Below, piece after piece: positions 1 through 61,537 of a stretch of 61,537 bases of DNA. How positions within the stretch are numbered: position 1 is the stretch's first letter; the number at the start of each line of letters is the position of its first letter. This DNA is from Amoebophrya sp. A120 (lineage: Eukaryota; Protista; Dinoflagellata): the NCBI GenBank assembly GCA_905178155.1, contig CAJINV010000015.1:824390-885926 (forward strand). The letters are read 5' to 3'. A program made the position numbers and the translations under genes. Under the pieces are notes generated by a model. It was not told where the DNA came from and searched no databases. It worked only from the letters and a program-made list of their open reading frames with translations.

Positions 1-962
1 GGGGATTCTGAAAAGCAACCTCGCTGCGCGCGCAGCGCGCGGAGAAAATTTTTCAAAGGGCCGACGGGGGTGGGGGCGCGCCACATGTGTGGGGAATGCC
101 GAGAAGCAACCGCGCCGCGCGCGCAGCGCGCGGAGAAAAATTTTGCAAGCGGCAAACGAAGGCGGGGGCGCGCCCCATGTGTGGGGGGCCCTAAGAAGCA
201 ACCTCGCCGCGCGCGCAGCGCGCGGGGGAAATTTTTTCGAAAAGCAGGCCACGCAACCAAGCGGACGCGCGCGGCTTTGGGTGCAGACGATCCGAGCCGA
301 CATACTTCGCGGCCAAGAAGACGGCAACGGTAGCAATGCCGCGCTCGCAACGCGCGGAGCAAATTTTTCAAGGGGCAGATGGAGATGGGGGCGCCCCCCA
401 TGCGTGGGCAATGCTGAGAAGCAACCTCGCTGCGCGCGCAGCGCGCGGAGGAAATTTCCAAAGGGCAGACGGGGGTGGGGGCGCGCCACATGTGCTGGGA
501 ACGTTTGGAAGCAACCTCGCCGCGCGAGCAGCGCGCGGAGAGAATTTTTCAAGCGACAGGCGAAGGTGGGGGGCGCGCCCCATGTGTAGGGAACGCGAAG
601 AAGCAATCTCGCCGCGCGCGCAGCGCGCGGAGAAAATTTTCCAAGCGGCAGACGGAGGTAGGTGCGCGCCCCATGTGTGGGGAGCGCTGACAAGACACCT
701 CGCTGCGCGCGCAGCGCGCGGAGAAAATTTTTGCGACTGACAAGCGGGCCACGCGGCCAGGCGGGGCCGCGCATTGTGTGCAGAAGAACCGCACCCACAT
801 ACTCGGCGGCCAAGACGAAGGCCGAGGCAGGAAACTCGCGCGCGCAGCACGCGGAGAAAATTTTTCAAGCGACAGACGGAGATTGGGGCGCGCCCCATGT
901 GCAGAGACGCTGAGAAACAACCTCGCCGCGCGCGCGGCGCGCGCGCGGAGAAAATTTTTCGC
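1..962. repeat. GC-rich satellite, ~90-92 bp unit, ~10 diverged copies (two longer ~135 bp variants)
   Basis: Core GCAACCTCGCYGCGCGCGCAGCGCGCGGAGAAAATTTTT...GGGGCGCGCCCCATGTGT recurs at ~16, 106, 198, 333, 421, 511, 603, 695, 830 and 917. The overlapping ORFs are repeat translations. Confidence 0.9.
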
Positions 963-5114: not shown

Positions 5115-8100
5115 CTAGTTCTCCTGGCGAGGAGCACCTGCTTGATCTACCACCACGTCTGTTTTATCAGCACCACACGCCGCACTCGCGGAGGACGATT
5201 CGTTTTTCGACCCGGCAACTACACCCGTGATGGCCTTGGTCGGAATGTAATTCGGGTTCCTCATGGCAGCCGCCCTTCCTTCCGGATATCAACACAAGCA
5301 AAAGCGTTAGCGTTAACGATTTTTACAGATTGCAGTCATGCATCACGAACATACATGCTATGCATTACAAATGCTGGCACCTTTTTAGATGCATTGCGGC
5401 AATGCATCTAAAAAGGTGCTGAATTTGTGATGCGGCAATGCCGCATTACAAATTCCGTTAACGTTAACACGTTTTCCTGTGATACCGGATACAGGTAAAT
5501 CATGCTTGGATCACGTCGATTCGTTGGCACGCTGGAGTCCCTTTGCGCGACGAAATTCTGCACATCGATGCGCCACGTCTCGAATTGTTTCCTGGTTTGG
5601 AAGTATTTTCTCAGCCTTCATCGCATTTTTTAACTCCAAGTAGTTCAAAACAATGCATATTCAAGTCAAGCTCATACCACAAAAGGAAGCAATGCACTTG
5701 TCACACAAAGCAGCAATGATCCAATGAAGTAACTCTACTTTCGTAAAAATACTTGAAGAATCTCCTCGAGTCGCCCTTTTTCATCAGTGGCGTTCCGTAT
5801 GGAAGCGTCAGGATCGAAATCGTCAAAGTTGAAATGATTTGTCATGCATAAAGTGCAAGACATGAAGCGCCTGTCTTGCCGGGATGGCAAGGGAGGCAGA
5901 TTACAAGCCTAATTAGGGTTTGGGATAGAGCTGCTAACGGAGCATGACAAAAGCAGTCAGTCTTCTGTGCCCGAACAACATGACAAATTGGATTCCGGTG
6001 CTCCATCAAACATTTGTCATGCGCCGCCTAGAAATTGGGCTTCCAACTGGTATCGATTTTATGCATCACAAGTTATTTCAACTTTGACGATTTCAATCCT
6101 GACACTTCCATATTCCTGGCCGGTCCGGTATTTCGAATTCCTGTCCGACGGCGACTCCTGACTGCGCTCTCTGCTCTTCACACAGCTCGCACAATATGCA
6201 ATACAAATTTGTTCTTGCCGTGTGCGACGTACAAAATGCATGTTGACATACTTCTGACTGTATGTAACAAGGAGCTTTGACATGCTGGATAGCTATAGCA
6301 ATGGCTGGATAGCTATACAAGTAGATGAAGACCACGAGTTTACTTGTCATACAAAGTGGTCGGTATTTTTTGTACATGCATCTCCGGCAATAAATTTCCA
6401 TTGGATACACAGCCGCTTGTAGAAGTTTGTCTGCTTGAAAGCACCGACTTCACCGTATCAAAATGAAAAATCCCCCCTCCCCATATCAAAACGGAAATTT
6501 GTGATGCTGATTTGTGGCCACAAATCAGCTTTGTATAGCGGAGAGGAATGGCGGCCAGATCCCCAGGCTAGGTAGGGGCTTATGTGTCTAGTTGTTCAGC
6601 ATGGCAAACGGCTCCCCTTTAGGCCTAACAGCATGAGAAATCGCTTCCATAATGGGGCGGAAGCTTCTGCCCTTGTCTTCTTGCAAGACAGATGTGATTT
6701 GTGGCCTCAAATCCGCAACACAAATTTTCGGAAACATACCTTTTCAATATGGGGAGGGGGGATTTTTCCTCTCAATACACCGGCATACCGCTCCAACTGT
6801 TTTTCTGGATCCAGGGACGCGGTCAGGTTGCTACTGGTCGTCATCGTGCTTTGCGCGTCATCTGGTGTCGTGGGATTTTAGCATGGTGGAGAAAAAAATC
6901 GTACTGACTTTGTCATGTGGAAATGCAAATGAAAAACTGAAAGTGAAAATCTTTTGTCATGTATACCATCCAGCGCAAGGTCTCGCTGCGCAATGGCATC
7001 CCTCCTGTGGTTCCGCTCCGGTCCGCCGTGCATGGTTCTGTTAGTTTGTGTTTGTGGGAATATTTGCCATGCGATACTGCAAGATAAGACGACGGCGCAG
7101 TTTTTCTTGTCATGCAAACCGAACCATGCTCGCTTCTGATTCTGAAGCGCTAGCGTGCCAGCATGAGAAAAAAACTGAAACCAGAAGCTGCTGTCTATAC
7201 TTTGTCTTTTTCTTGCTGGGTTTCTCTAAGACCAAGGACTCAAAAGACGCTGCGTCAGAAGCGGTGGTTGTTCGGTGCCGCTTGGAACCTTGATTCGCAC
7301 TATCGTGGACAAGCAGGCCGCCGATGAACTGATATTGATATTTTCGTGGCCATAGTTTTTTCTTTTTTTCCATAACTCGTGCTTTCATAGTGACCGAGAG
7401 GTAACTAGGAACTCAGAACAGAACTTCCTTTTCATTGTATGTATCTGTTCTTTGGACAATATCTAAATCTCCGTGCTGCATTTGCATGCGTTACGACTAC
7501 ATCAACTGTGCATGCATGCATGAGTCTTCTCCTGACTTAAGATCTTCCGGACATTTTGGAACTTACGGCACCAGAACAAAACAAAGTAAACATCATGCGC
7601 ACAAAAAAAACGAACACTTGGCAGAGCAAAAATTTCAATTTTTTTACCTCCGCGCCCTCCCGTATCGTCGGCGGCACACTGGTTTGTGAAACCATGGGAT
7701 CCATGAAGATGAAAGGCTGTTGCATTCCGGATGATGGCCTCGCTGGCGGAGCAAACATCGGCGGTCCCGGTCGATGACCGTTTAGTTGATTCGCCATCGG
7801 CGCGGCTCCTGCAGCTGCTCCGGAAGAGGTGGCAGAAGAGCTTGCGCAAGACGCGCTGGACGAGCACGAGAAATCAGTTCCCAGTCGTGAAGAAGATGCC
7901 ATTGCTCCTGCGCCCCCGACCTGTTCGGAGGTTGAGGAGGTAGTGCTGGATATGGTTTATCAAATGCAAATATGTCTGGTGTTTTGTCTGGAAGCAAGAC
8001 CTTGGCACAGCACAGCCACAGGGAAAACTTTTTGAAGAAAGAAAAGTAAAAGAGAACTACGTAGATACGCATGTAGAGAGAGATTGAAAGCATGCTATAA

Positions 8101-11100
8101 TGTCCACCGGTGGAACTGACTACTATTACTACTTGTGCTTGCACTTGCGCAACATTACATACAAATTGGGTGCAGTGAACTTCTGCCCACGGGGTCCCGC
8201 AGGCTCTACCAAGTTGCTACGCTGGCCAAAGCGCTAGGCACCTGGGAGCCTGTGGGTGCTCGCGCAGTAGTGTCATGGCCGTGCGAATAGCACACCGTGG
8301 GTGCATGCTCACTACTATTCGCTGACACTACTACCGTTCATGACCCTCTCCCCAAATGCGCATTCGAAAATAGTTAAGCTAAGAACTATCACAGCGCTCG
8401 AGTAAGGAAAAGGATCGTTACGAGCAAGAGCTTAATTAAAATAGATCAATGATTTTATACGGAAAATTTTTTTGTGACATGGAACACATGGGAAAACCTG
8501 CGTGACAAGTCTTGCAATGTTCCAGACCCAGACATACTTGCAATGCGTATGGTTTTGTTACTCACCATGCTCGAAGACAGGTTTTTGTTCTGGTCCATTA
8601 CAAGACTCGCTAACGCCGCGGTGGTGAGCTTGTTGGTTTCTGACGAGACGGATGATTGGTGTTCCACTTGGTAAGGACCCGCCTGAGAGACTACAGCATC
8701 ATGACCTCCTCCCGAAGTTGTGCCGGAGTTGCATTGGTCTTCCGTTCCCTCTTTCAGCTTCTTTTTCTGCGCCCAGACTGGGTGGAGCCTGTTCTCTTCC
8801 GCAGGTCTTGCTGCTGCGGCGGTGGTCGTGTTCTTCTGGTTCTCCTCCTCGGGATGCTGTTGAACTTCTAGGTCCGTGGACAACAGCGGCACTTTCGTAT
8901 TGAAATTCACAGGAGGGGCACAAGAAATACCTGCCGCACCACCAGCACCCAAAGCCGGAAATTCGTTTTCACTTTTAATATCCACGGGTGGTTTCTGGAT
9001 CATTTCCGGCTTTAATTCCTCCGTGATCTTTTCCCCGGTCGCCGCGAGCCGCAGTTTCAGCTCGTTCTCGTCCGTTTTTCGTAAATACTGCTCACACTCC
9101 CGCTGAAACACCGACCCGGGCGTTGCCAGCGCGGACACGGCCTGGTGCAGATTTGGTGGCATGAAGATGGGTTGGTCGCTGTCAAAGGTCGCAATGTCGA
9201 AATCAGGCGGGATCCAGATCTTTTCGTTGTTCAGCGCGATCAGAACCCCATCGCCGGTTTTTCGGGCGGTGAGCAGGGCCTTCTTCATTTCCTGTCTCAC
9301 TTCGTGCGGGATGAAAACCTGGTTGTGGAAAAGCGGATTGAGCTCGCCGGTTTCCTTATTTTCTGGCATCGCTGAACAAGAGGAAATAGAGGAACAGTTG
9401 CTCTGGTTCAAGAGACTGTGGTTGTAGCAGCTGCTGCTCGCGTTACTGCTGGCTCCAGAGATGTCAGAAGAAGCAGCTGCCCCCTTACGCTTCATTTTTC
9501 TTCCTCTTCGCGACGAAGATTCGACTGATTGCGGACCGGAAGAACAAGAACCTCCGGGGAAATTCTGGTCATTCGGGAAAAACATCATACCTCCTGGCGC
9601 ATTGTTTACTCCCAGTAACTGGTCGAAAGAGAGGAGGCTGCTGTCAACGCCACTTGCAGTGCCATTGTTTATTCCCCAGTGCGAAGTAGATCCTGCGCCG
9701 TTCTGTGGCCAGTTGAAACTGAAATTCTCCACGGAGTTGTTGTCAGATGCACCCCCAAACCCGGAAATAGAGGAGCAGTTGTCGCTGCCGTTTTCAAGGG
9801 AGCTGATATCAAACATGTCGTCAATTTCCGAATTGTTGCTGTTCACCGTGTTTTGCCGTCGAAGATCAGCTGCCCCAGCACCGTTAGGATCCTGATCTCC
9901 TCCGGCCGTATTCGTGCTGCTGGTGTCGCGGCCTCCGGGATTGATACTATCACTCGGCAGCGGGATCAGCTGCCCGGCCGCGATAAGGGCCGCGAGATCC
10001 TCGGGGCTTTGCTCAACTGCGGGTCTGTCGGCGCTACAAGAAGTGGACAACTTCATTTCCACATCTATGCTGTCAGCTGGCGGCGGTGGCGTTTTGCTGA
10101 GTGAGGAACTAGAATTCATGCCAGTTGCAGTGCTATCGCATGCAGCTCCTGCACCCGGCTGCTGCATAGAGCCCCCTGGAGGCCCTGCTCCGAACTCTGA
10201 ACTGGTACTAGTATTGTGATCCACCGCACTGACGGGCGTAACCGTGGTCATTGTCGTCGTGTGGTTTGCGGTCGGCATCTTATGCAATGCAAAAGCATCG
10301 TACTCGTAGTATTAATCGCAGATATGCATTACAAATACAAATCTCAACCCAAAAGTAAAACAGCATAACAAATCCTATTTCTCATGCTGAGCACATTTGC
10401 ATTGCAATTTATACTAGGAGACCACTACGATGTTTTTGCAAATCATACATCTGCAGGTCCAACAAGTTTTCCATGCGCAGCCCGTTGCTCGCGCCCGGGC
10501 ACCCGTTGAAGGAAAAGTCGTTTTCTTCCTTGAATAGAGACAGAGACTCGGAAGATGACATGAAGGATTTCTGCAACAGATTTTCTTTCCCGACGGTTTT
10601 GTTAAAAAACTCGCTGATTGGCTTGTTCAGATCCGCGTCTATTATCGTGGAAAAACTCGTGTCAAAAACGCCAGCCGGAAGCGGGTTGTTCTGACCTTGC
10701 TGGAGGTCGTACTGCTGATGGCCGTTCGTACTAGCGCTAAAGGCCTGCTCGTTGCTGTTGTGCGAAGGAGCGTTATTATTGTTGCTCATCCCCGCAGCAC
10801 TACTACTGGGTGAAGCAACTAGTCTCCCGAAGTTCCGCATCATCTTGTGATGCTCGATTTTTTGCGCGATCAAGTCCGGCCCGCCGCCGACAATGTCTTG
10901 CACTACCTCCGGGGGCAGTGTGTGAAACGTCGCCGGCTGGACGTGGACGTACAGCTGCTGTTGACCGGTTCCCGAGGAAAAATCTGCTCCTCCAGGTCCG
11001 CCCTTGCATGGATTTTCGCCTTTCTTGCCCGCGGCCCCTTTGCTCGATTTGGATTTTCCCTTGCCCTTCACAGCTTGTTTCCCAGCAGCACCGTCATGTT

Positions 11101-46206: not shown

Positions 46207-48450
46207 TTACTTAGTTTCTGTTTCATAAAAACCCGTCCGGTCTGCTATGAGATTCTCAAACGTTACACTCTCAACTGTTGCATGATTTGTCACGCAAAAC
46301 TAGCACTATCATCTACACGATCAAGCTGCTCTGCATGACAAATTCTGGACGAATGGCCAATTAGGCTGATAATCTGTGCCAAATCTGTCATGCAAGACGC
46401 GCCATGCCCCCTCTTCATTTTTCCCATTCTTGCATCACAAATCCATGTAACAGTTGAGAATGTAACATTTGAGAGCGCCATATCTGCCCAGCGCGGCGTC
46501 GAAGACGGAGAGTTTTCCTTCCCGGAGTATGAAAGGAAAGCGAGAAGTTTGTAATGCTGAGGCAGAAGTAGGACAGAGAGTTTGTCTTTTTTGTCATGCG
46601 TACAACGCAGGAGCTGAAAGCTTGTCATGCCAGCCTCGCAATACAAATTTATTTTTTCTCGTCTCTTTTCATAAACCGCTTCATGTAGGGGTCGGTGAAG
46701 GACCACTTGTTTTTGTACTTTTCCACCATGTCCAAGCTTATGGAACCGGAAAATTTCTTTGTCATGCGGAATGATCATGACAGCACGCATTGCAACTCAT
46801 ATAAACAAGTTTGTAATGCAGAGATACCATATGCAAGCATAAGCAACGTGTGCGTTATTTCCCCCATGACAAATCCAAATCGCTTGCATTTATTTCCTCT
46901 TTGTTCTTTGTCATGCGAGAAAGAACCCATGATGACACGAGTCGCAACTACTGAAGATACGACTTTGTAATGCAGGGACACCATATGAATGCAAGGCGCG
47001 TTTGCGTTTCCCGCATGACAAATCATTTTACTCTTCCTACTATCGAACTCGGACTCGTACTCCGGCGGTTTCATCGTGCGCGGATCCGCGTGGGCGGAGT
47101 GCTGATTTGATCAGATTTGATGTCATGCATCCAGCACAAGGATGAAAAATCATATCTGTCATGCACGCCTCTGCATGAGGAACAAAAACAAAATCAACTT
47201 TTATACCGTCTGACTCTTGTAGTACTCGTCCTTGGGACCCAGGTCGTCGCGCTTGTAGGTGTCAATGTCCCGAATCTTCGTGTTGGAATCGATCATTTCC
47301 TTGGCTATCAAATGCAAAAATGTCTGGGTCTGGATGGTTCTTTCCAGGTTTGTCATGCATGTTTTGCATGACCCATCCCATCATGCCTGTGATGCATAAC
47401 CTGGCATCACTGATTTTTAGAGGGTGAGGGATTCCTGATGCCTATTCTGCATGAGAAATGCCCTCCCCTTGTACAACAAACTGGACTTCCTTTGCTCCTC
47501 ATGCAATACAGATTTTTTTCGAATATAATTCGAAGACAACATCACAAGTTACAATCTTCCAGACCCAGACACTTCTGCATTTGATATTGGCGGCAAATTC
47601 ACCATACCCGGAGTTTGTCGTCGTGAGGAGTATGCATACGGAGATTTTCTTCTTTCTATCATGCCGTTCTTGACGCGCATCACAAATAGACACGACTTCA
47701 TGTTCATTTTCTTGGAATGGGTGCTCTGCATGACAAACCCGGTCTGCGTCTGAGATGCATCAGCAGACATGCTATGTCGAGTTGAAAAAGAAAATCTCTG
47801 TTCATCCATAAACGTCGAAGCGGCTTTCCCAGGCAAGGAGTACAACTTCCGCACACGGTAGTCGTGCTGAAACTGCTTGTCCATCCTGATTTGTCATGCA
47901 ATTTTGCAATGATAGAGTATGCCTGTCATGCTCCCACGCATGAGAAATAAGAGAAACATCATTCATTGCGAAACGATTTAGTGTTGCATCAGTTTTACCT
48001 ATAATTTGCCATGCATTTTTCCAGCGCAAACAGCACCATCACCACATCAATAACCTTACCGTTTGTCTACCCAGGGACCGACCAGCGTGTGTCCGCTGTA
48101 AATCGCCTTTTATCCTGAGTAAAAACGTACCCACACCAGAGTCAGGATGGGGATTTTGCAACACAAACCTAGGAGTTTTGTGAGTCACGCATGACAAGTT
48201 GCACTCTGCAGTGTAGTGCAGGTTAGCAAGTGCAGCCGCGTCACAGATTCATCTGCTCATCCTGTTCACAGCATCACAAATTCCAAAACACGATTGGCAA
48301 TGGCTCTCGTGGGGATACGCATTACAAGTCTTCCTGTCTTTGCAAATCTGCATTACAACTCTGGTGTGGGTACGTTTTTACTCAGGATACCTTTTTCAGC
48401 TTCATCTGCGTGTCAGTCAGCTTCGCAGGCTCCTGTGCTTGGTTCGGCAT
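46207..48450 (-). CDS. Small multi-exon protein resembling NWE-motif ciliary microtubule inner proteins
   Basis: Spliced N-terminus MPNQAQEPAKLTDTQMKLKKAIYSGHTLVGPWVDKR resembles YSxxTLxGNWxExR. Later exons TTTNSGYGEFAAKEMID..., ...WADRTGFYETETK*. Several internal junctions are unresolved. Confidence 0.55.
46246..46482. mobile_element. Introner family G (237 nt, reverse orientation)
   Basis: Family G TIR, DR TCTGC/TCTGC. Confidence 0.9.
46528..46673. mobile_element. Introner family M (146 nt), DR decayed
   Basis: TIR TATGAAAGGAAAGCGAGAA / TTCTCGTCTCTTTTCATA. Flanks CGGAG/AACCG do not match. Confidence 0.6.
47306..47586. mobile_element. Introner family C (281 nt)
   Basis: TIR TATCAAATGCARAARTGTCTGGGTCTGGA, DR TTGGC/TTGGC. 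Confidence 0.92.
48111..48389. mobile_element. Introner family L (279 nt)
   Basis: Perfect 32-bp TIR TATCCTGAGTAAAAACGTACCCACACCAGAGT, DR CCTTT/CCTTT. The only copy that can be read as GT-AG. Confidence 0.93.
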
Positions 48451-50675: not shown

Positions 50676-52469
50676 CTACCGTCGTTTCCGCACCGCCGTC
50701 TTCTTTCCTCCCTGAGCTGCGCGCAACTTCTGCAATTTCACAGACGCTTTGTTCGTCTTCGCACTTTTATTCCCCTTGTTCAACGCCTCTTCTTTCTCTT
50801 TCTTACACGTTAACTTGAACAGCTCACTCGCCTTCTGCGGGCAAATCTCGCGCCTCACAGTGAAGTCCTGCTTTTTGAAGATCGATTTATTGGTTCCACT
50901 ACCTCCGCCCCGAATTTTCCGCAACAGCTTTTCCGCACGGGAGGTCTTCGCAGGACCAGAAGTACTACTACTAGGCGCTTGAGCTGTCGCCAATGCCGTC
51001 GCAGTGCCCGCAGTAGTACCAGCAGCAGCGGATGAGAAAATCGACTTCATCGGTCCTCCAGCACCTCCTGGTGCTGTTCCTGCTGAAGAGAAAATGCTCC
51101 CCGGCGCAGGCGTCGTGAAAATAGAAGCGGTTGCATTTCCTGTGCTGGACGAAGGGTTCGACTTCATCAAAAAACCATTCGCACTACTAGCACTGGTAGC
51201 CCCCGGTGTTTTCCCCTCCAAGACGAATTCCTTCAACTCCTTTTCAAATTCCTCCAATTGCGCAAAGGACGCTTTAAACATGGTGTTCCCGGCGTTCTTA
51301 TGCATTGCAAAAGTATCGTACTAGTATAAATTGCATTACAAATTGACTTAGCATTACAAATTAAATTTGTAATGCTGATTTACCTTGAAAAATAAATTTG
51401 TAATGCAGAAATGCAATTACTACGAGTACGATACTTTTGCAGAGGATAGTTCTCCTTCACCTTCAGCCTCGCGGTTTTCGCCAGTTTGCAGTGGTTGACG
51501 AGAAATTCGGCGCACTTCTTCTGCATCTCCGGGTGACGGACCCAGCCGAACCGCAGGGACGCCTGCCGCTGCCGTTGGTCGAGCAACTGCAAGGTCATTT
51601 CCGCCCCATTGTACCCCACATCCAGGAGCTGATTTTTGCTGGTTGTATTTGGTTTATTTCCAATTGCAGCCGTAGTGCTGCGGCCCCCACCACCAAACAT
51701 GAAAGACAGCGCATCGCTCGGTGTTGGTTGTGCTGTTGCGGTACCATTTGCATTTGTTGCACTTGCTCCTCCTCCTGGAGCAGCTTTACTGGTCTTTGTT
51801 CCGCTTGGTGCGCCCGTCTCCTTGGCGTGCTTCTTGCCCTCCGACAAGTCTTGGCAAACCGCCTGCGTTATGGAGTTCTCAAGCGTTACATTCTCCTCTG
51901 TTACATGAATTTGTCATGCAAAACTACCATCATCATCCACAAGATCAAGCTGCTTCGCATGACAAATTTGCGAAGGGCTACACACCACCTAAATCTGTGC
52001 GGGATTGGTAATGCAATTTTTGCAATCTTCCTCCTTTGGCTTTTGCCATTCTTGCATTACAGATTCATGTAACAGTTGAGAATGTAACGTTTGAGAACAC
52101 CATATGCGTCAGATCGCTGTTCCGAAACTGCTCGCCTAATTTCTTCTTGTTGGAAGAGGTGGCAGTTGAGTTTTTGCTTTGCTTCCCTTTTATATTCGTG
52201 ACAGAGGAAGAGGAGGTCTTCTTCTTATTTGTAGTCCCCTTGGAGGTCGTGGCTCCAACGGTTGCTCCGGTCGTGGAAGAAGATTTGTTATTCATCATCT
52301 TCATTTTCTTGGTTCCACCACCCGCGGCGGCTCGTCCAGCTCCGGGCGCTGCCATGGATAAACCTGCTTTTGGCAATTTTTCAATGAACTTTTGTAGTCG
52401 GAGAAAGTGGTACTGCTTCTGGTCGCTCAACTTGTTGTATTTACTTCTTACTTCTTCCGGTGACAACAT
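50676..52469 (-). CDS. Hypothetical Lys-rich basic protein (~465 aa), 2 introners
   Basis: ORFs 52065-52472, 51380-51847 and 50676-51305 join in frame (DLT-QAVC, KEN-AGN); spliced length 1398 nt. Confidence 0.8.
51299..51448. mobile_element. Introner family A (150 nt)
   Basis: Family A TIR, DR GTTCT/GTTCT. Confidence 0.92.
51869..52104. mobile_element. Introner family G (236 nt, reverse orientation)
   Basis: Family G TIR, DR TGCGT/TGCGT. Confidence 0.92.
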
Positions 52470-52835
52470 CAAGTGCGACCATTAATTTTCCAGCTCAAAA
52501 TGATGTACTAGCTACAAGAAGAACTTCGTTCATCAACATCAAGTGCAACTGCAACTTTCCGGCTCAATATTTCAATTTCTCAAGTTCTTTAAAGCGTACT
52601 CGCCTACTAGCGCTAGCCTGGTCCTGGACGAGATGAAAAACAACATAAGAAGTACTTAGTATAGGTATGAAATTTTGCACGACAAAGTGGAGCAAAACTA
52701 CGAGCACCGGTAACCATGATGGGCTGCATATTAGAAGATAAGCGGAACGGAACATAATTTCATGAAGATCTTCATACATAGGATTTACAAGATTACAGAT
52801 CAATGCGATCGCCATTTGTTCGCATGATTGGCCGC

Positions 52836-54100
52836 TCAGGCTGCCGGCCCCGGGCAAGCTACCCGGTTTGAAATTGGTGTAAAACAGCACTAATCTAAAA
52901 GCGGGAGGGGGGCAAAAGAAGCGCGCCAAAGTGCCGGCGCGAATGGCCAGGGGGAAGGCGCGGCGCGCGGTCCAAACAGACAGGGGGCGAGCACAGGCAT
53001 TGGCCGCGGGCCCGCGAGGACAGCAAAGGCCGCAGGCCTGTGGGCCCATCGCGCCCCCGGCTTCTGCGCCAGATCACGAAGCGGAAACAGGACCCGGCAA
53101 AGGAATGGGAAAAACCAAGCCCCCCACGGGGCCCTGTCTACAATATGCAACACAGGGGGCGGCGTTGGCATAACACAAACCGGAAACCAAGCACAAACCT
53201 TGCCGAAGATCAAACGAAACCACTGCAAGTGGCCCGTAGGCTGCGCCAAAAAGGCCTACACCCTAAAAATTCCGCCCAAAAACAAAAACCCTGGGCCACC
53301 CCGGTTGCTTGGCAACCCACACCCAAAACATTGCGACTTTTGCGCTTTCCCCAAATTGGGTCTCCACTGTGCTTATTGTGTTAATTTGTGGTGTAAATTT
53401 TGTTTAGTTTGTGGTTTAATTTTGCATTAAAATTTGCATTAATTTATGGGGGGCGCGATTTCCCTCATGTTTCGCCTTGTTTTGAAATTAATGCAAATTT
53501 TATTGCAATTTTTATTGCATAGATTATTGCAAAAATTATTGCAGAGGTCAGGCCGCGGGATCATGCGAAAAAAGTCGCAAGTCCTGCCGCCCCCTCTGCA
53601 AAAACCCTCGACCCCCATTGGCTCACAAGAGCGCCGCTACCAAACAAAGGCCGCGCGCTTGGCCGGGGTCGGCTCCCAATGTCTCGGCGGGCGACGTCCT
53701 ACCCCCTGAAGCCCCGGGGGAAGAGCCGCGGCAAAATCAGGCCCCCGGGCCGAGCAACACGACCACGAAAACACCGCCCGAGAAGCAACCCGACAAGGCC
53801 CGCCCCCGGCGAGAAGCCGGGGAATTTCGGCACGGCACAGGGAAGGGCTGCACCCTCGCAATGGGCACTCACAGAACCCAAACGCGGCACCCGCGGGCCA
53901 CACACCAAAAGAGCAGGGCCCCCGGGCAAAGTTTCCCCCCCCCGCGGACTCCGCGCGACGCGCTTCGGGAATTCCGGCAAAGCCAACCCCTGACCAGCCA
54001 ATGCCCAAAACCAACGAGACGAAACCCGACCCAGCTTTTACATTAGTGCTTTTTTACGCTGAGTTTATTGGCCCGAATTTGCCCGGGGCTGGCTGGCTGA
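52836..54100. mobile_element. Non-autonomous GC-rich TIR transposon, 1265 bp
   Basis: ~70-bp imperfect TIR TCAGSCWGCCRGCCCCGGGCAA...AGCACTAATSTAAAAGC. GGCCGC duplicated at 52830-52835 and 54101-54106. Absent from the paralogous site near 56290. Confidence 0.88.
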
Positions 54101-54724
54101 GGCCGCGGGCCCCAAGAAGGTCCGTCGATCATCTTGTAGTTGTCCCGAGTGTATTACAATTCAGATCCTCATCTTGACGATTCAGCTTCTCCTATGTATG
54201 CATATACACTTAGCATTCGTATCCATGAAGATTTATCAGATTGGTAGTTCCGTCGTGTGCAGCATTTATTTTCACCATTTGGAACTAGGTCCGCTGTCTA
54301 GATGAACATCCATAGAATTCAACAACGATCGTTTCAGTAGGGCTCCTAGGGTCATGCTCATGGCCCTTCATTCTGGGTCCATGAAGAGCGAGGGCGAGGA
54401 ATTGGAAGATGAGAGGAACCTCCCACGTCTTTTGTTTCCTTTTACCCACAGCTGCTTGGATTCATCAAATCTGTACAGTTCGTACAACGTGAGCTCCTAG
54501 TACATACACAACAGCATTCTGCTCATGCTATTCGCATTCTATTTTGTTCTGTCGTGGACGAGTTGCAGCTTACGATTAGGTTAATAGTGTGCTGCTGCAT
54601 CAAATCTTAACATTCATCAAAAACTTCTGCAAAGATGGACCAACTGGAGGTCGATTCAGGAGTTCATCTACCGTGTGGGAACTTGTCGTCGTGGTCCACA
54701 AAGCCACCAACTCGAACTCCCACT

Positions 54725-54991
54725 TATCAAGTGCAAAAATGTCTGGCTCTGGAAAAGTGTAAACTTGTCATGCAGATTCTCCATGACCCATGAGGTGTGG
54801 AATGCGGGGCTTAGCCTGACAGACTCTGCGGGGTCTCTTCCATGCCTATCCTGCATGAGAAACTGCCTTCCATCTTGGTCAAAAGTGGACAGCTTTGGGC
54901 ACTCATGCAACACAGATTTTTGCATGCTTCAGAATTACCATGACAAGTTGCAACCTTCCAGAACCAGACCCAGACATATTTGCATTTGATA
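54725..54991. mobile_element. Introner family C (267 nt) in a duplicated 3'-UTR-like segment
   Basis: Family C TIR, flanks CCACT/CACT. Absent from the paralogous site near 56880. Confidence 0.8.
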
Positions 54992-55138
54992 CACTCTAGC
55001 TCTTACATCTCATACTCATCCCGCCTTTCCATTCCGTTATGGGTACTGCTTCCATCCCGCCTTTCCAATCCGTAGTCGGAGAAAGTGGTACTGCTTCTGG
55101 TCGCTCAACTTGTTGTATTTACTTCTTACTTCTTCCCG

Positions 55139-55445
55139 TATGGAAGTGTCAGAATCGAAATTAACAAAATCGAAATAATTTGCGATGCATAAAATGTAGG
55201 GCACTGGAGGCCTGTATTGGGGAGCAGGCAAATGAGACCGATTGTAGGCCTGTTTAGGGGTATACAATGTGCTGCCAGAGTAGCATGACAGGAGGACTCT
55301 ACTTTGCTGAAATAGCATGACAGACTGGATTTGAGTGCTCCCAAAATTTGCCACGCGCCAATTGGAAACTGAGGCTCCAACTGACATCGATTTTGTGCAT
55401 CGCAAATTTTTCGACTTTGTCAATTTCGATTCTGACACTTCCATA
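55139..55445. mobile_element. Introner family E (307 nt), close paralog of the 59918 copy
   Basis: Family E TIR, DR TCCCG/GCCCG. Confidence 0.9.
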
Positions 55446-55486
55446 GCCCGCCCGAAAATTGTAGAGGCGAAGGCTCGCGAGCTTTT

Positions 55487-55775
55487 TATCCTGTGCAAAA
55501 GTGTCGCACTCGTATTGCAATCATGCATTAGAGTGGGGTAACAAACCTCCTGCAGGTAGTTGCCGGCCAACTTCTCATCCACCCGGCCGGGTGGATGAGA
55601 AGTTGGCTTGGTTGGCGTGTCCGCGTCACCCGCCCACCCGGCTCCGTCCAAAAAAAAATTTGTAATACAAATTTTTTTCTGAAGCTAAATTCGCATATAC
55701 AAATTTTATTTCTCATGCTGAGGAAATTCGTAATGCTAATGCATTTATACGAGTACGATACTTTTGCAGTGCATA
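55487..55775. mobile_element. Introner family A (289 nt) with a nested ~135-nt insert
   Basis: Family A TIR, DR CTTTT/CTTTT. The insert carries a 42-bp perfect palindrome at 55566-55607. Confidence 0.85.
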
Positions 55776-56887
55776 CTTTTTCGCCGGGGACAACTTCAGT
55801 AGGAAGCTGGGAACGGGGTCGCCGGACTTCGAAAGCCAGCACCCGCCACTCTTCAGCTGGAAGTTTGCGATACTCGGAGAAAGTGGTACTGCTTCTGCTC
55901 GCTCAACTTGTTGTATTTACTTCTTACTTCTTCCGGTGACAACTTTCGCTTTCCAGTGCAACTTTCGCTTTCCAGCTAAAAATGTAGTATGAAACTTCGT
56001 TCATCAACATCAAATGCTGCAACTTTCCAGTTCAAAATTTTTCAAGCCGTTGTGAACTTGCCTACTTGCACTTGCCTGATCCTGGACATGGAAAAACAAC
56101 ATAGACATGAATAAATTTTTGCACGACAAAGTGGATCAAAACGAGCACCGGTAACCATTATGGGCTGCATATTTTAGAAGATAAACGGAAAGGAACATCA
56201 TAATTTCATGAAGGTCTTCTTCTTCGTAGGATTTACGTACAAGATTATGATTACAGATCAATGCGATGGTCATTTGTTCGCATGATTGGCGGGCCCAGAG
56301 ACGGTCCATCGATTATCTTGTCCCGAATTATATCACAAGCAATTCAGATCCTCGTATTTCCTATGTGTTGTACTAATGGCATTCTTATCCACCATGAAGA
56401 TTGTTTGTTGATCCAGCATCATTTAAGTGCATTTATTTTCACCAGTGAGTTGGAACAACTACGTCCGCTTTATTCGAGATGAACATCGATGGAGTGCAAC
56501 GCTCATCATTTCATCAGTAGGGTCACGGCCCGTCGTTCTTCTAATCTAGGCTCAACATAACGAGCAAGGGTGAGGAACAGGATCATGAAAGGAAGCCACG
56601 TCCTTTGTTTCTTTTTGCTTTTATTTTCGCGCTTGTTCCCAATCATGATCATTTTTTAAAGTTGTTCATACACTTCTTGCTTTATCAAATGCTTATTGTT
56701 CCGTCGTGGAGTAGATGTTTTTGTTTCAGTAGGTAACTGTGCTGCTTCAAAATCAGATTCATCAGAAATTACAAATCAGATGGAGGCTCACGACCAGGAC
56801 GTCGATTCATAGCACCGACGTGTAGGACTAGGAACTTTTCGTCCGCAGGACCAACAACTCGAAGATGAACAACTCCACCTCCACTTC

Positions 56888-59800
56888 TCACATCTCATAC
56901 TCATCCCGCCTTTCCATTCCGCCGCGGGGAAGCTGATCCATGGATAGCTTTCGGTCTTCTTGTCCACCTCCGTCGCCATAGAAGGAAGATGCTGATGAAG
57001 TTCCAGCTTCCTCCTTCCCGACTCCGGATAATTGTTCTCTCGCACTTGCACTTGGTGGGCCACCTTTTCCTTTGGATTTTGTTCCACCTTTCATCGACGC
57101 TTTAGTATTGGTCTTTCCCTGCTCGTTGTCGCGATCTTCATCAACTCGTCGCGACCGTCGTCCAGCTTGTGGCTCTTGATTCACGACAGTTGCAGGAACA
57201 GCCGTGGAGCTGCTCGCCGTGTTGTTCGCTTTTTGCTGAGAAGAGAGCGAAGATGGTGGTCCTCCTGGTCGCGCTAACGGTGTTCCTGATGTTGTTCCGT
57301 CTCGACTTCCACCTTGCTTGTTTATTTTACCTTCCTCCAGTGCGCGATCTTGTTCCGAAAGAGCTCTACTTCTGCGACTGGGAACGAGGGCGTCGATCTG
57401 CAGATCGAAGACTTGCAGCACGTGCCCCGCTCCAGCGCCCAAGCGGAATTCTAATGCCACGTTTTCGGTGGTCCCTTTCGCTCCGAGCTTGTTCAAAAAG
57501 TTGAGACTCCCAGTGCTGACGCCGTTGGGGTCTGTGTGCGGCATCCATCCGTCGCACCCCGTGATGACGTGGACCTGCCGCTCTCGGGTTTTCGGCGCAG
57601 GCTCGATGCGGACCAGGTTATTGGAGTAGATACCATCGGCATCGTAAGAAAAAAGTGCTACACTTACACCTTTCTCATGCAAGAGCGGCAACACAGACAA
57701 CCTTTCTCATGCAGGAAATGCTTAGGAGCCTCGTTTCCTTCCTGTTTTCTCTTATGATCTTCGCGTTACAAGTTTTCTCTGCCACGCAGAGAAAATTTGT
57801 GATGCGGAAACTCCAACAAGTGTGTAACTGTATATACTTTTTTCTCATGATAATCGGCTGTCATGCGCTTGATCTGCAAGGATCCCTTGGATTCGCCCCA
57901 TCCCTGGTCTTTCCAATCGATATACACGCGGATGGCGACCACCTTCTGCGTGTAAGAAAACGTGGTTACGTTATGGGACTCTCAAATGTTACATTCTCAA
58001 CTGTTACATGAGTTTGTAATGCTAGAAGAGCAAAAGTCAAAGGGGGAGGGTTGCGCCTCTAGCATTACAAATTCCGCACAGATTTCAATGCTGTTTAGCC
58101 CTTCGGGAATTTGGCATGCGAAGTCGCTTCACAATGTGAATCGAATGATGATGTTAGTTTTGCATGACAAATCGTGTAACAGTTGAGAATGTAACGCTTG
58201 AGAACGCCATATACGTACTGCAAGAGGTCGAAATCGTCGGAAAACGGGGGTCCGTTCCGGTTATGGCGTTCTCAAACGTTACATTCTCAACTGTTCCATG
58301 GATTTGTAATGCAAGAACAGCAACAGCAAAAGTGGCAATATTGCAGCTTTCGCATCACAGATTTGCCGCAGATTATCATGCTGCTTGGCCCTTCGAAAAT
58401 TTGTCACGCTAAGCACCTTGATCAAGTGGATGCTGATAGCAGTTTTGCATGACAAATCCGTGTAACAGTTGAGAATGTAACAGTTGAGATGAACGCCATA
58501 CCGGTACAACGGTGCTTGCGACCAGCGGAATATCTCATGGGTGTACTTAGAGGCCTCGTACAGGTCTTCCTTGTTGGCCACACCTGACGTGCTTAGAAGA
58601 TCGGCGGCCACATCTTCTAGAACTTGAATCCCACAGACCGCTATTTGCTCCGTCGTCGCCTGGCCTAGGCGGCTTTATCAAATGCAAAAATGTCTGGGTC
58701 TGGGAGAACTTGTGATGCTGTCTCTGGATTCGAAAAAGATTTGTATTGCATGACCAGTAAGAGGAGTAGATTTTGTGCTCCGCGGAAATGGCATTTGTCA
58801 TGCGGAATAGGCATGAGGAAGCGCTCTAAAAATCTGTGATGCTACGGCATGCATCACAGACATCATGGGTCATGGAAAATATGCATGACAAATCTAGATT
58901 TTGTTGTTGAAATCTTCCAGACCCAGGCATTTTTACAGTTGATAGGCTTTGGTCCCAGGCAATCCGGACACTCTCCGCCTGGTTGAGGGAAGGTATTTCG
59001 GTCAGGGGAATGTCTACAAAGCGGTAGTTATCGTCGTACAAATTCTCCAACGGGCCGGGTACTCGATTGCTCTCACTGGGATCCAGTATTGCCTGAAAAT
59101 TAACCATCCCCATCCACTTTTTGCATGACAGACACAGAATTTTATACATGTTTTGCATGACAAATTGGATGGGGATGGTTAATTTTCAGGGAATATCCAG
59201 GCTGCCAACCTGATGACCCGTGCCGACCATGTATCAAAATGAAAAACCCCCCCTCCCCATATCGAAACGAGATCTGTGATGCTGGATTTGCGCACACGCA
59301 TCAGATTTGTCTTGCTGAAGGGGACGGCAGGCCTACGTCAAGCCTGAGTAGAGAGGTTTTGGCGTAGGCGCTTAGCATGAGAAACGTCCGCGCTTTGGGC
59401 CAAACCGCATTACAAACCGCCTCCATAATGCGGCGGAGCCTGTGGAGTTGCCGTCTTGCAAGACAGAGATGATATGTGGTCGCAAATCAGCATTGCAAAT
59501 TTTCTGCGACGTACTTACCTTTTCGATATGGGGAGGGGGGATTTTTCCTTACGATACCAGGCACGGCGCGCTCCCCACACCCGACCCCGCCGCGCAAATC
59601 TGCACTATGGGAAGATTCTCAAACGTTACATCCTCAAACAATAATGCAAGAATGGCAAAAGTGAAAGGAGGAAGACGAAGATTTTTTTTGCGCCTTTTGC
59701 ATTACAGATTTCATCGGACGGATAATTCTAGTGCTATTTAGCGCGTCGAGAAGTTGTCATGCGAAGAAGGATTGATGTAGTTGATCGTGTGAAGAGTGAT

Positions 59801-60264
59801 AGTGCTTTATTTGCATGACAAATCATGTAAGAACGGTTGAGAATGTAAGAACGTTTGAGAACGCCATATCCACGTAAGCATTCTTGTACCACAGGGACTT
59901 GACCGGTTCGACGCCCGTATGGAAGTGTCAGAATCGAAATTGACAAAATCAAAATAATTTGTGAAGCATAAAATGCAGGGCACTGGAGGCATGTATTGGG
60001 GAGCAGGCAAATGAGACCGATTGTAAGCCTGTTTAGGGAATGCAATGTGCTGCCAGAGTAGCATGACAGGAGCACTCTACTTTGCTGAAGTAGCATGACA
60101 GACTGGATTTGGATGCTCCCAAAATTTGTCATGCACCACTTGGAAACTGAGGCTCCAACTGACATCGATTTTGTGCATCACAAATTTTTCGACTTTGTGA
60201 ATTTCGATTCTGACACTTCCATAGCCCGCCCGAAAATTGTAGAGGCGAAGGCTCGCGAGCTTTT
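56888..60264 (-). CDS. Multi-exon hypothetical protein with a WKDQGWGxxKG...GAGAGH domain; 5' end missing or disrupted
   Basis: Seven introner excisions give a continuous frame KLASLRLYNFRAG-VEPVKSLWYKNAYV-..-SLD-PSES..WDQS-RLG..LYR-NGPP..LQYV-TTFSYTQKVVAIRVYIDWKDQGWGESKG. The junction at 57660-57860 is unresolved. Confidence 0.7.
57972..58211. mobile_element. Introner family G (240 nt)
   Basis: Family G TIR, DR TACGT/TACGT. Confidence 0.92.
58262..58500. mobile_element. Introner family G (239 nt)
   Basis: Family G TIR, DR CCGGT/CCGGT. Confidence 0.92.
58676..58944. mobile_element. Introner family C (269 nt)
   Basis: Family C TIR, DR GGCTT/GGCTT. Confidence 0.9.
59087..59195. mobile_element. 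Introner family J (109 nt)
   Basis: 30-bp TIR TATTSCCTGAAAATTAACCATCCCCATCCA (1 mismatch), DR TCCAG/TCCAG. Confidence 0.92.
59232..59556. mobile_element. Introner family D (325 nt)
   Basis: Family D TIR, DR CCATG/CCAGG. Confidence 0.9.
59606..59868. mobile_element. Introner family G (263 nt)
   Basis: Family G TIR, DR TGCAC/TCCAC. Confidence 0.88.
59918..60223. mobile_element. Introner family E (306 nt)
   Basis: Family E TIR, DR GCCCG/GCCCG. Confidence 0.92.
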
Positions 60265-60315
60265 TATGCATTGCAAATATGTCTGGGTCTGGAAGAATGC
60301 AACTTGTCATGCTGA
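60265..60315. mobile_element. Introner family C, single end (truncated)
   Basis: TATGCATTGCAAATATGTCTGGGTCTGGAAG with no partner TIR in the window. Confidence 0.7.
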
Positions 60316-60428
60316 TATGGCCCGGACAACTCGTGATTTGAAAAAACGTTGTTTTTTTTAAATATAGCTACTTCGGCGATCCTTCTGCTACGCCTGAGGC
60401 AAATAGTTACTTTTGGCCCCCCTTGGGG

Positions 60429-61247
60429 TAGCTACTGATGGAGGTAGGTAAGCTAGCTATCTGATGAACTTGAAGAACTTGCGACGGCCGAGAGTCATCA
60501 CGATTGTCAGGAGCAAGCGGCGCCATCGCGCATCCGTTCCCCTAAGCATCGCCTTGCCAGATTTTGAGCGGTCGGAAGATCGCGCCCTCATTACAAGTCA
60601 GCAAGTTGGAGGGACAGGCTCAATTTGAAGAATAGATTTGCATTACAAGTTCGCGACGACTTGCCCTCCCGATGTGGGCTGGTTGGGGGCCCTATAGGGA
60701 TATCCCTTACAGGGAACATAAAGGGATATATGGATTTTCGGGCGAAGGCAGGGATGAGACAGGGGGATCATTCAGGCGGATCATGATCCCCCCTGATGAT
60801 CTCCTCAGAAACGCGGCAAGGAAAAATCAGCATAGCGCGCAGGCTAGCTTCAAAGGGGGGGATCGAAACAGGGGATCTCTATCCCTTCCAAATCGAGGCG
60901 GGTTTGAAGGGATCGCCAGGGGACATCATGGGGTGGGATCATAGGTTGGGGGGTGAACTATCCCCCCCCCGGAGGGGTAAACCATCCCCCTGGCAGGAAA
61001 AATAGTCAAGACATGCACCATCCGGGAACGCGTCACACAGGTTTCCGCATCCGGGCGCGATGATTATCTCCCCCGCCTTCGGGCGGGCCATGCACGCGGC
61101 GCGATTAGTGATCGCGAGCGCCTTCAAGTGGAAGGGCGCCCGCTTCAGCTTCGCCTGGTTTTCGGCAGTACAACGGCAACAGCCGGAGCCGGAGACCCTT
61201 CTTCTAGTTTATTAGCCAGCTACATTATCTATCTAGTTTAGTAGCTA
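60429..61247. mobile_element. Degenerate TIR element, 819 bp, TAG..CTA ends (hAT-like)
   Basis: ~47-bp imperfect TIR TAGCTACT..TAGRTAA..TAGCT..TRATRAACTWGAAG. Flanks CCTTGGGG/CCTTGAGC (6/8). Confidence 0.6.
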
Positions 61248-61324
61248 CCTTGAGCTAGATACTGGATACGTAAACACTTTAGGGGCGGGCAGAGGTTAGT
61301 TCGGGTCTTTAAACTTTGAAAAAA

Positions 61325-61386
61325 GACTTTTCTCCTTTGATATCACGTGATATCACGTGATATCACAGGACCAAAGGAGAAAAGTC
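61325..61386. repeat. 15-bp perfect inverted repeat around a 28-bp palindrome
   Basis: GACTTTTCTCCTTTG / CAAAGGAGAAAAGTC. Inner TGATATCACGTGATATCACGTGATATCA at 61338-61365. Confidence 0.85.
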
Positions 61387-61433
61387 GATTGCGCTGCTGA
61401 TATCACAACATGTGTGATATTTAGAAAAAAGCA

Positions 61434-61537
61434 AAAACAGAAGGAATTGATGCTAAAACAGAAGGAATTGACGCTAAAACAGAAGGAATTGATGCTAAAA
61501 CAGAAGGAATTGATGCTAAAGCAGAAGGATTTGATGC
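61434..61537. repeat. 21-bp minisatellite, ~5 copies, runs off the window end
   Basis: Unit AAAACAGAAGGAATTGATGCT. Confidence 0.92.

Follow-up and report, generated by a model that had tools for sequence, protein, structure and literature searches.

Amoebophrya sp. A120 carries 29,850 introner elements, which make up 17% of its assembly, end in TAT-N7-AAA, are bordered by direct repeats of 3-5 nt and are spliced inside the repeat, four bases upstream of the 5' end (PMC7789003, accessible part). These elements have been assigned to diverse TIR transposons (PMC12130899, accessible part), and a linker preference of introners in general has been reported in what is accessible of PMC9860276 and its preprint. 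Different elements at one position are known from other systems, here as described in the accessible parts of the papers. Carrot Stowaway MITEs show different elements at one position in 292 of 18,518 sites, mostly involving families with similar ends (PMC6881990). Parallel gains account for 43 of 90 new introns in Daphnia pulex (PMC4202315), three cases of parallel gain concern fungal introner-like elements (PMC4457414), and cases of parallel intron gain in Micromonas were called suggestive (PMC4540971). In targeted transposition of P elements, a new element lands precisely where an older one was inserted, either in tandem with it or as its replacement (PMC3887531).

We analyzed a stretch of A120 DNA of 61,537 nt, called the window below, in which two different element ends, of families termed A and C, are found at one homologous nucleotide in two copies of a gene region. 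The carrot case is alike in that different non-autonomous TIR families occupy exactly one homologous position and similar ends are favoured; there, the elements are alleles in different plants and make no introns, whereas here both states are present in one genome and the elements are introns (PMC6881990, accessible text). The Daphnia, fungal and Micromonas cases share with this locus the presence of unrelated introns at a homologous position (PMC4202315, PMC4457414, PMC4540971, each from its accessible part). The Daphnia introns are not transposon families, whereas two recognisable TIR families meet here at one base (PMC4202315), and the fungal introns are matched to ordinary introns of other species within a 15-bp window, whereas here the exact base is shared (PMC4457414). 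Targeted P-element transposition works between elements with identical ends, in contrast to A and C, which have 10 of their first 13 bases in common, and prior occupancy of the site is hypothetical here (PMC3887531). The accessible part of the published A120 account describes neither same-site different-family pairs between duplicates nor a spacing rule (PMC7789003), and a literature search limited to openly accessible text found no report of such pairs or of the spacing given below in Amoebophrya. The pair is genuine and represents one example of a type of event already known, in an introner system that is itself known.

The exon at 56888-57643, the last of its gene, is a 100% match to P0001, an Amoebophrya sp. 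A120 protein encoded on a contig of 2,136,109 bp; P0002, matched by the gene at 50679-52469, comes from a contig of equal length. The window contains 41 paired introners, which cover 16% of its length, compared to 17% of the assembly (PMC7789003, accessible part). Their ends are inverted (TAT...ATA) and flanked by 5-bp target duplications, 32 of which are perfect and 8 carry one mismatch, the last element having a 4-bp repeat. Family letters (A to H) are labels of a preliminary description and of the present analysis, not published names; paired copies in the window number 11 for family A and 5 for family C. Summed over the A and C ends, short-read contig depth reaches hundreds to thousands of times the single-copy level, indicating repetition genome-wide. 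TAT followed by seven variable bases and at least three A is present both in the A element at 55487 and in the C end at 60265; family E begins with TAT and has no A run at the expected place. The terminal inverted repeats match at 20 of 25 bases in the A element at 55487 and at 24 of 25 in both E copies, and the element at 60265 has no second end in the window. The organism is that of the published introners, whose inverted repeats starting with TAT and direct repeats spanning the exon boundary recur in the A and E elements and may do so in the element at 60265 (PMC7789003, accessible part). The features of the locus are as follows, with the strand where one was assigned.

50679-52469, minus strand: gene G1, identified by protein match (P0002, 465 aa, unnamed)
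52394-55036: duplicate block X, homologous to Y, with the 5' end of G1, intergenic DNA and the 3' end of G2
52836-54100: 1.27-kb insertion with terminal inverted repeats, multi-copy (depth several times single-copy), in X only
54725-54991: family C introner in the G2 3' region, in X only
55037-55071: junction filler, a templated insertion in which short pieces of both flanks are copied, from sequence
55072-55136, minus strand: extra copy of segment S, identical to 52394-52458, in place of about 3 kb of G2
55139-55445: E introner of the duplicate copy, flanked by TCCCG and GCCCG
55446-55486, minus strand: 41-nt stretch of the duplicate copy, a 36-nt exon plus target duplications
55487-55775: complete family A introner with CTTTT on both sides and about 130 nt of filler near 55530-55660
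55776-55873, minus strand: next upstream G2 exon, a fragment, with P0001 residues 746-777 unchanged
55871-56921: duplicate block Y, homologous to X, with a third S copy, intergenic DNA and the true 3' end of G2
56888-60264, minus strand: 3' part of G2 (P0001 residues about 777-1232), with seven paired introners and one other intron
59918-60223: E introner of the intact gene, GCCCG on both sides
60224-60264, minus strand: 41-nt stretch of the intact gene, KLASLRLYNFRAG, an exact match to the duplicate
60265-60316: family C terminus of about 50 nt with no partner end in the window
60317-61537: rest of the intron of the intact gene (Y intron) in the window, with a low-copy repeat and a 21-nt tandem repeat, running past the window

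The identity of the two 41-nt stretches, noted in the preliminary description, is exact and forms part of a 68-nt exact match composed of 24 nt of E, the 41 nt and TAT; in both copies this match runs through CTTTT and stops three bases (TAT) into the adjoining element. What had been called a 41-nt exon is indeed an identical stretch, but it holds both 5-bp target duplications, and the exon itself is 36 nt under the splice rule that reproduces P0001. An identity over 41 nt has a probability of 0.04 at 7.5% divergence; at the divergence of about 6-7% it is unremarkable and expected for coding DNA. The E element common to both copies, also noted earlier, is one inherited insertion: 55139-55445 and 59918-60223 align with 287 identities, 19 mismatches and 1 gap over 306 aligned bases, and the pair is far closer than it is to the three other E copies of the window, which are only about 77-89% alike to it. 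The E copy at 55139 has a foreign left flank, where TCCCG replaces GCCCG as a target repeat with one mismatch.

On the other side of the exon, the visible ends at the shared nucleotide are A and C, different from base 4 on. The A element at 55487 is typical of its family at both ends, and the foreign DNA inside it terminates in an inverted copy of its own flank. From base 4 on, the end at 60265 is typical of family C; it matches other C ends over about 48-52 nt and then gives way to unrelated DNA. A second C end was not found after 60265 within the window (to 61537). The earlier statement that different families follow CTTTT directly was right for the A element and for the C-type end, but C is represented by this terminus only. 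At the three visible ends, no trace of the other family was detected beyond the shared TAT...TGCAAA. The remainder of the Y intron contains inverted arms (60427-60477 and 61199-61249). Inner foreign DNA in the A element and in the element at 60265 represents two of the three such cases noticed in the window. At 7958-8549, a long C-ended element has an unrelated interior and a perfect target duplication. Recombination within the common A/C terminus of the A element was considered and rejected, as its two ends differ at bases 4, 6 and 7.

P0001 (1232 aa, unnamed) has a single Pfam match, PAN_4, with an E value of 4e-5, below the curated cut-off, and five ORFs of the window gave nothing above the cut-off in Pfam. 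The P0001 frame is regained once the seven paired elements between 57972 and 60223 are taken out. A splice rule that retains base 1 of the left repeat and the four final bases of the right repeat yields P0001 at both imperfect repeats (NAYVEIC and APCLVGTG); this rule, derived from the window, agrees with the published splice point four bases upstream of the 5' end, so that splicing occurs four bases into the repeat in both (PMC7789003, accessible part). Upstream of the 41 nt, P0001 continues with IANFQLKSGGCWLSKSGDPVPSFLLKLSPAKK and then with 745 more residues outside the window; the C end at 60265 is thus one end of an intron in the intact gene that measures at least 1.27 kb and has its far end beyond the window. 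The gene model of P0001, GSA120T00014246001, joins across both this intron and E, and the protein reads ...PAKKLASL... across the Y intron, which is compatible with a CTTTT-like repeat at its far end. A contig end as the reason for the missing C partner was rejected, as P0001 lies on the 2.14-Mb contig with its first 745 residues outside the window. The same 32 residues, IANFQLKSGGCWLSKSGDPVPSFLLKLSPAKK, are also encoded at 55776-55871, on the far side of A. Hence the 55-kb copy (55135-55873) is a piece of G2 in which the intron at the same codon pair is filled by A, and the intron position is homologous by protein too, P0001 placing it at this codon pair in both copies. The notion of paralogous exons needs qualifying, as this copy is a 739-bp gene fragment whose spliced form has stops in all three frames, and not a working paralog. 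That the two copies are an internal domain repeat of one gene was likewise rejected, the 55-kb copy being located downstream of the G2 stop and without a frame. A protein search for relatives of G2 gave only P0001 itself. In metagenome contigs, 59 pattern matches were obtained, none of which was confirmed, and a 27-nt piece of the exon had no exact counterpart; neither search yielded a copy with an empty site.

The fragment belongs to a rearranged duplication. The first codons of G1 (segment S, 52394-52469, encoding MLSPEEVRSKY...) are present three times, at 52394, 55072 and 55874, and the S copy in block Y has lost its start codon. Blocks X and Y align in two parts with 376 of 429 (88%) and 427 of 555 (77%) aligned bases identical and with many indels. 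The likeness of the copies is 95-100% in coding parts, including a TAA/TGA stop swap, 94% in E and 77-88% in intergenic DNA, a gradient which suggests that both copies were intact while diverging and were reduced later. Local gains after the split are the C introner at 54725 and the 1.27-kb insertion, both in X only. Between the stop region and E of the duplicate, 3 kb of G2 are absent and are replaced by 35 nt of filler from both flanks and 65 nt equal to the G1 start. Filler copied from flanks is typical of template-switch or polymerase-theta repair.

An assembly artefact, in which one exon-element junction or the whole duplicate would be a misjoin or a second haplotype, has to be considered since the region is packed with high-copy ends. 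In addition, no contig piece spans the exon-A or the exon-C junction among the 24 listed of more than 35,000. Against this, depth was equal in the two blocks: 44 and 42 in X-only stretches compared to 41 and 47 in Y-only stretches for run X1, and 22 and 37 compared to 25 and 24 for run X2. As both copies are at full single-copy depth, two alternative haplotypes were rejected. Short-read contigs of X1 and X2 end at 52423 and others begin at 56892, the positions expected from a 31-mer graph in which 55037-55870 is present, whereas a graph lacking this segment predicts 52452 and 56890; one contig end is two bases off (56921 observed, 56919 predicted). These runs may come from the sample of the window assembly itself and are then not fully independent of it. 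The target duplication of the A element is also perfect, the P0001 sequence runs on across the Y intron, and the published assembly was examined for chimeric joins with Nanopore reads (PMC7789003, accessible part). Combined, these results make an artefact very improbable.

The preliminary description had raised the possibility of a strongly targeted site. No target-sequence motif was found across 39 sites (maximum information 0.19 bits, reached by 69% of shuffles), and targeting by a sequence motif was rejected, there being no consensus. The target is a free 5-mer, unlike that of the carrot Stowaway MITEs, which is TA. A preference by position near existing elements is supported, which leaves that part of the suggestion standing. 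None of the 41 gaps between neighbouring elements of the window is shorter than 35 nt. Leaving out the four gaps that belong to this case or to the rearranged fragment, 37 remain, and 13 of these measure 35-85 nt, compared to a mean of 1.5 and a maximum of 8 in 100,000 draws under a uniform null, this range having been picked after the gaps had been seen and in one window only. Among the 15 gaps of up to 300 nt, the clustering at 35-85 nt has a binomial P of about 1e-8. The absence of gaps below 35 nt may result from selection against tiny exons, but such selection does not account for the peak at 35-85 nt. From the observed gap density, two independent gains beside E would fall on the same base with a chance of about 0.02.

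Our favoured reading, to which we give a probability of about 0.45, is that the copies split with this site still empty and that each of them then gained its own element. The G1-G2 region would first have existed as two intact, diverging copies. A shared transposase or a chromatin context set by the neighbouring E would have placed A in X and a C-ended element in Y, at CTTTT. The element in Y would be long, or would later have acquired foreign DNA, and would terminate outside the window in a C end followed by CTTTT. Template-switch repair would later have reduced X to the 739-bp fragment. In favour of parallel insertion are the perfect CTTTT duplication of A, as in the majority of the paired elements, the purity of the three visible ends in family type and the gains that X received after the split. 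The spacing brings the same-base coincidence to about 0.02, the element at 7958-8549 provides a long C-ended example with a perfect duplication, the protein sequence is in keeping with a CTTTT-like repeat where the Y intron ends, and the carrot sites are a precedent (PMC6881990, accessible part). Parallel insertion nevertheless assumes a complete C element whose far end lies beyond the window, and no empty-site copy emerged from the protein or metagenome-contig searches. It also requires a coincidence of about 2% on top of two gains beside E, and the 35-85 nt zone on which this figure depends is post hoc. The inner foreign DNA of both elements hints at repeated break repair here, which suits its rivals.

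One rival holds that A predates the duplication and is still present in the intact gene, C having inserted into the CTTTT duplication of A (C-CTTTT-A), possibly followed by an inner deletion that left a hybrid with one C end and one A end. A single new insertion at this base would then suffice, and A would be free to be old; the Y intron, at 1.27 kb or more, is long and of composite make-up, and in Drosophila targeted transposition the target element was kept in tandem in 32 of 34 cases (PMC3887531, accessible part). The lack of gaps below 35 nt among the 41 suggests exclusion near ends, although the gaps are too few to gauge stacking at one base, and all other element ends detected by motif are paired within their own family, with the exception of 60265; we regard such stacking as unlikely. 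The preliminary description had also proposed replacement or re-insertion. A transposase common to the families would have excised an ancestral element from one copy, and the other family would have refilled the site through gap repair from an ectopic donor or through precise loss followed by re-insertion. This is possible: the terminal bases common to A and C mean that one transposase may serve both, filler DNA in both elements points to break repair at the site, and P elements provide a precedent for precise replacement, seen in 2 of 34 targeted insertions (PMC3887531, accessible part). However, neither family was seen to have left a remnant at the visible ends of the other, the junction falls inside TAT, the terminal homology is short for homology-directed repair with no hybrid terminus seen, and loss plus re-insertion takes one event more than parallel gain, so that replacement appears quite unlikely. 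A wider reading, which we hold to be unlikely, is that Amoebophrya introners choose their place by distance, 35-85 nt away from an element already present, and are able to take over an occupied intron site, with families replacing each other while intron positions persist and sequences turn over. This pair would then be such a replacement, with both of its states preserved in sister copies of the same genome.

The sharing of an intron position is usually read as common ancestry, and two transposon families making an intron at one base of sister copies would be a counter-example. Together with a spacing rule that favours same-base coincidences, such a case offers a direct way to measure the homoplasy of position sharing over about 30,000 introners (PMC7789003, accessible part). 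Should the far end of the Y intron show replacement or stacking, this would reveal how A120 introners move. As one case whose far end lies beyond the window, the finding is modest, and the spacing rule is the more useful lead.

Finally, the duplicate fragment seems to be transcribed, with E spliced out. The evidence is the length of one contig from run X3, a run that is RNA by guess, no run found to contain the sequence being on record as RNA: this contig starts at 58501 and is 457 nt long, the length predicted if the duplicate is transcribed with E spliced, compared to 456 if only unspliced E competes.

The splice register of the introners was fixed by two copies with imperfect target duplications (59232-59556 and 59606-59868). 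In both cases, the spliced product keeps four bases of the upstream repeat and one base of the downstream repeat; therefore, every intron has the form N-TAT...ATA-NNNN. Throughout the window, adjacent introners are separated by at least 35 nt, and 13 of the 37 introner-introner gaps cluster between 35 and 85 nt, a range picked post hoc in a single window. This clustering results in strings of exons 30-60 nt long. No target motif was found at the introner sites of the window.

The broken duplicate of gene G2 (54431-55940) seems to be transcribed. A contig from X3, a run presumed to be RNA, covers 54431-54719 at a depth of 89, compared to 8-10 for the intact gene, and 43 letters of this contig map elsewhere, as expected if the adjacent family C introner (54725-54991) was spliced. 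The broken duplicate carries no reading frame. P0001, the product of intact G2, is rich in cysteine, with a weak PAN_4 match within its N-terminal half, and no homolog of P0001 was found; we infer that it is possibly a surface or adhesion protein.

The filler (55530-55660) of the family A introner at 55487 contains a perfect 42-nt palindrome (55566-55607) and terminates in an inverted copy of its right flank. Other elements and repeats of the window are as follows.

Elements and repeats in the window
1-960 (window start), degenerate 91-nt tandem array
7958-8549, 592-bp element with C-type ends and a TGGTT duplication that is perfect; its interior is not related to other family C copies
52836-54100, GC-rich element of 1.27 kb, whose inverted ends consist of two parts and whose flanking repeat resembles GGCCGC
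61431-61537 (window end), 21-nt tandem repeat

The GC-rich element at 52836-54100 is multi-copy as judged by depth and is unlike the TAT introners. Short introns at 46500-47200 and 47650-48020 carry TTTGTCATGC / GCATGACAAA motifs and lack TAT ends; they perhaps represent an older or different introner class. The segment 17440-18680 is GC-rich, differs from flanking DNA and is possibly another inserted element.
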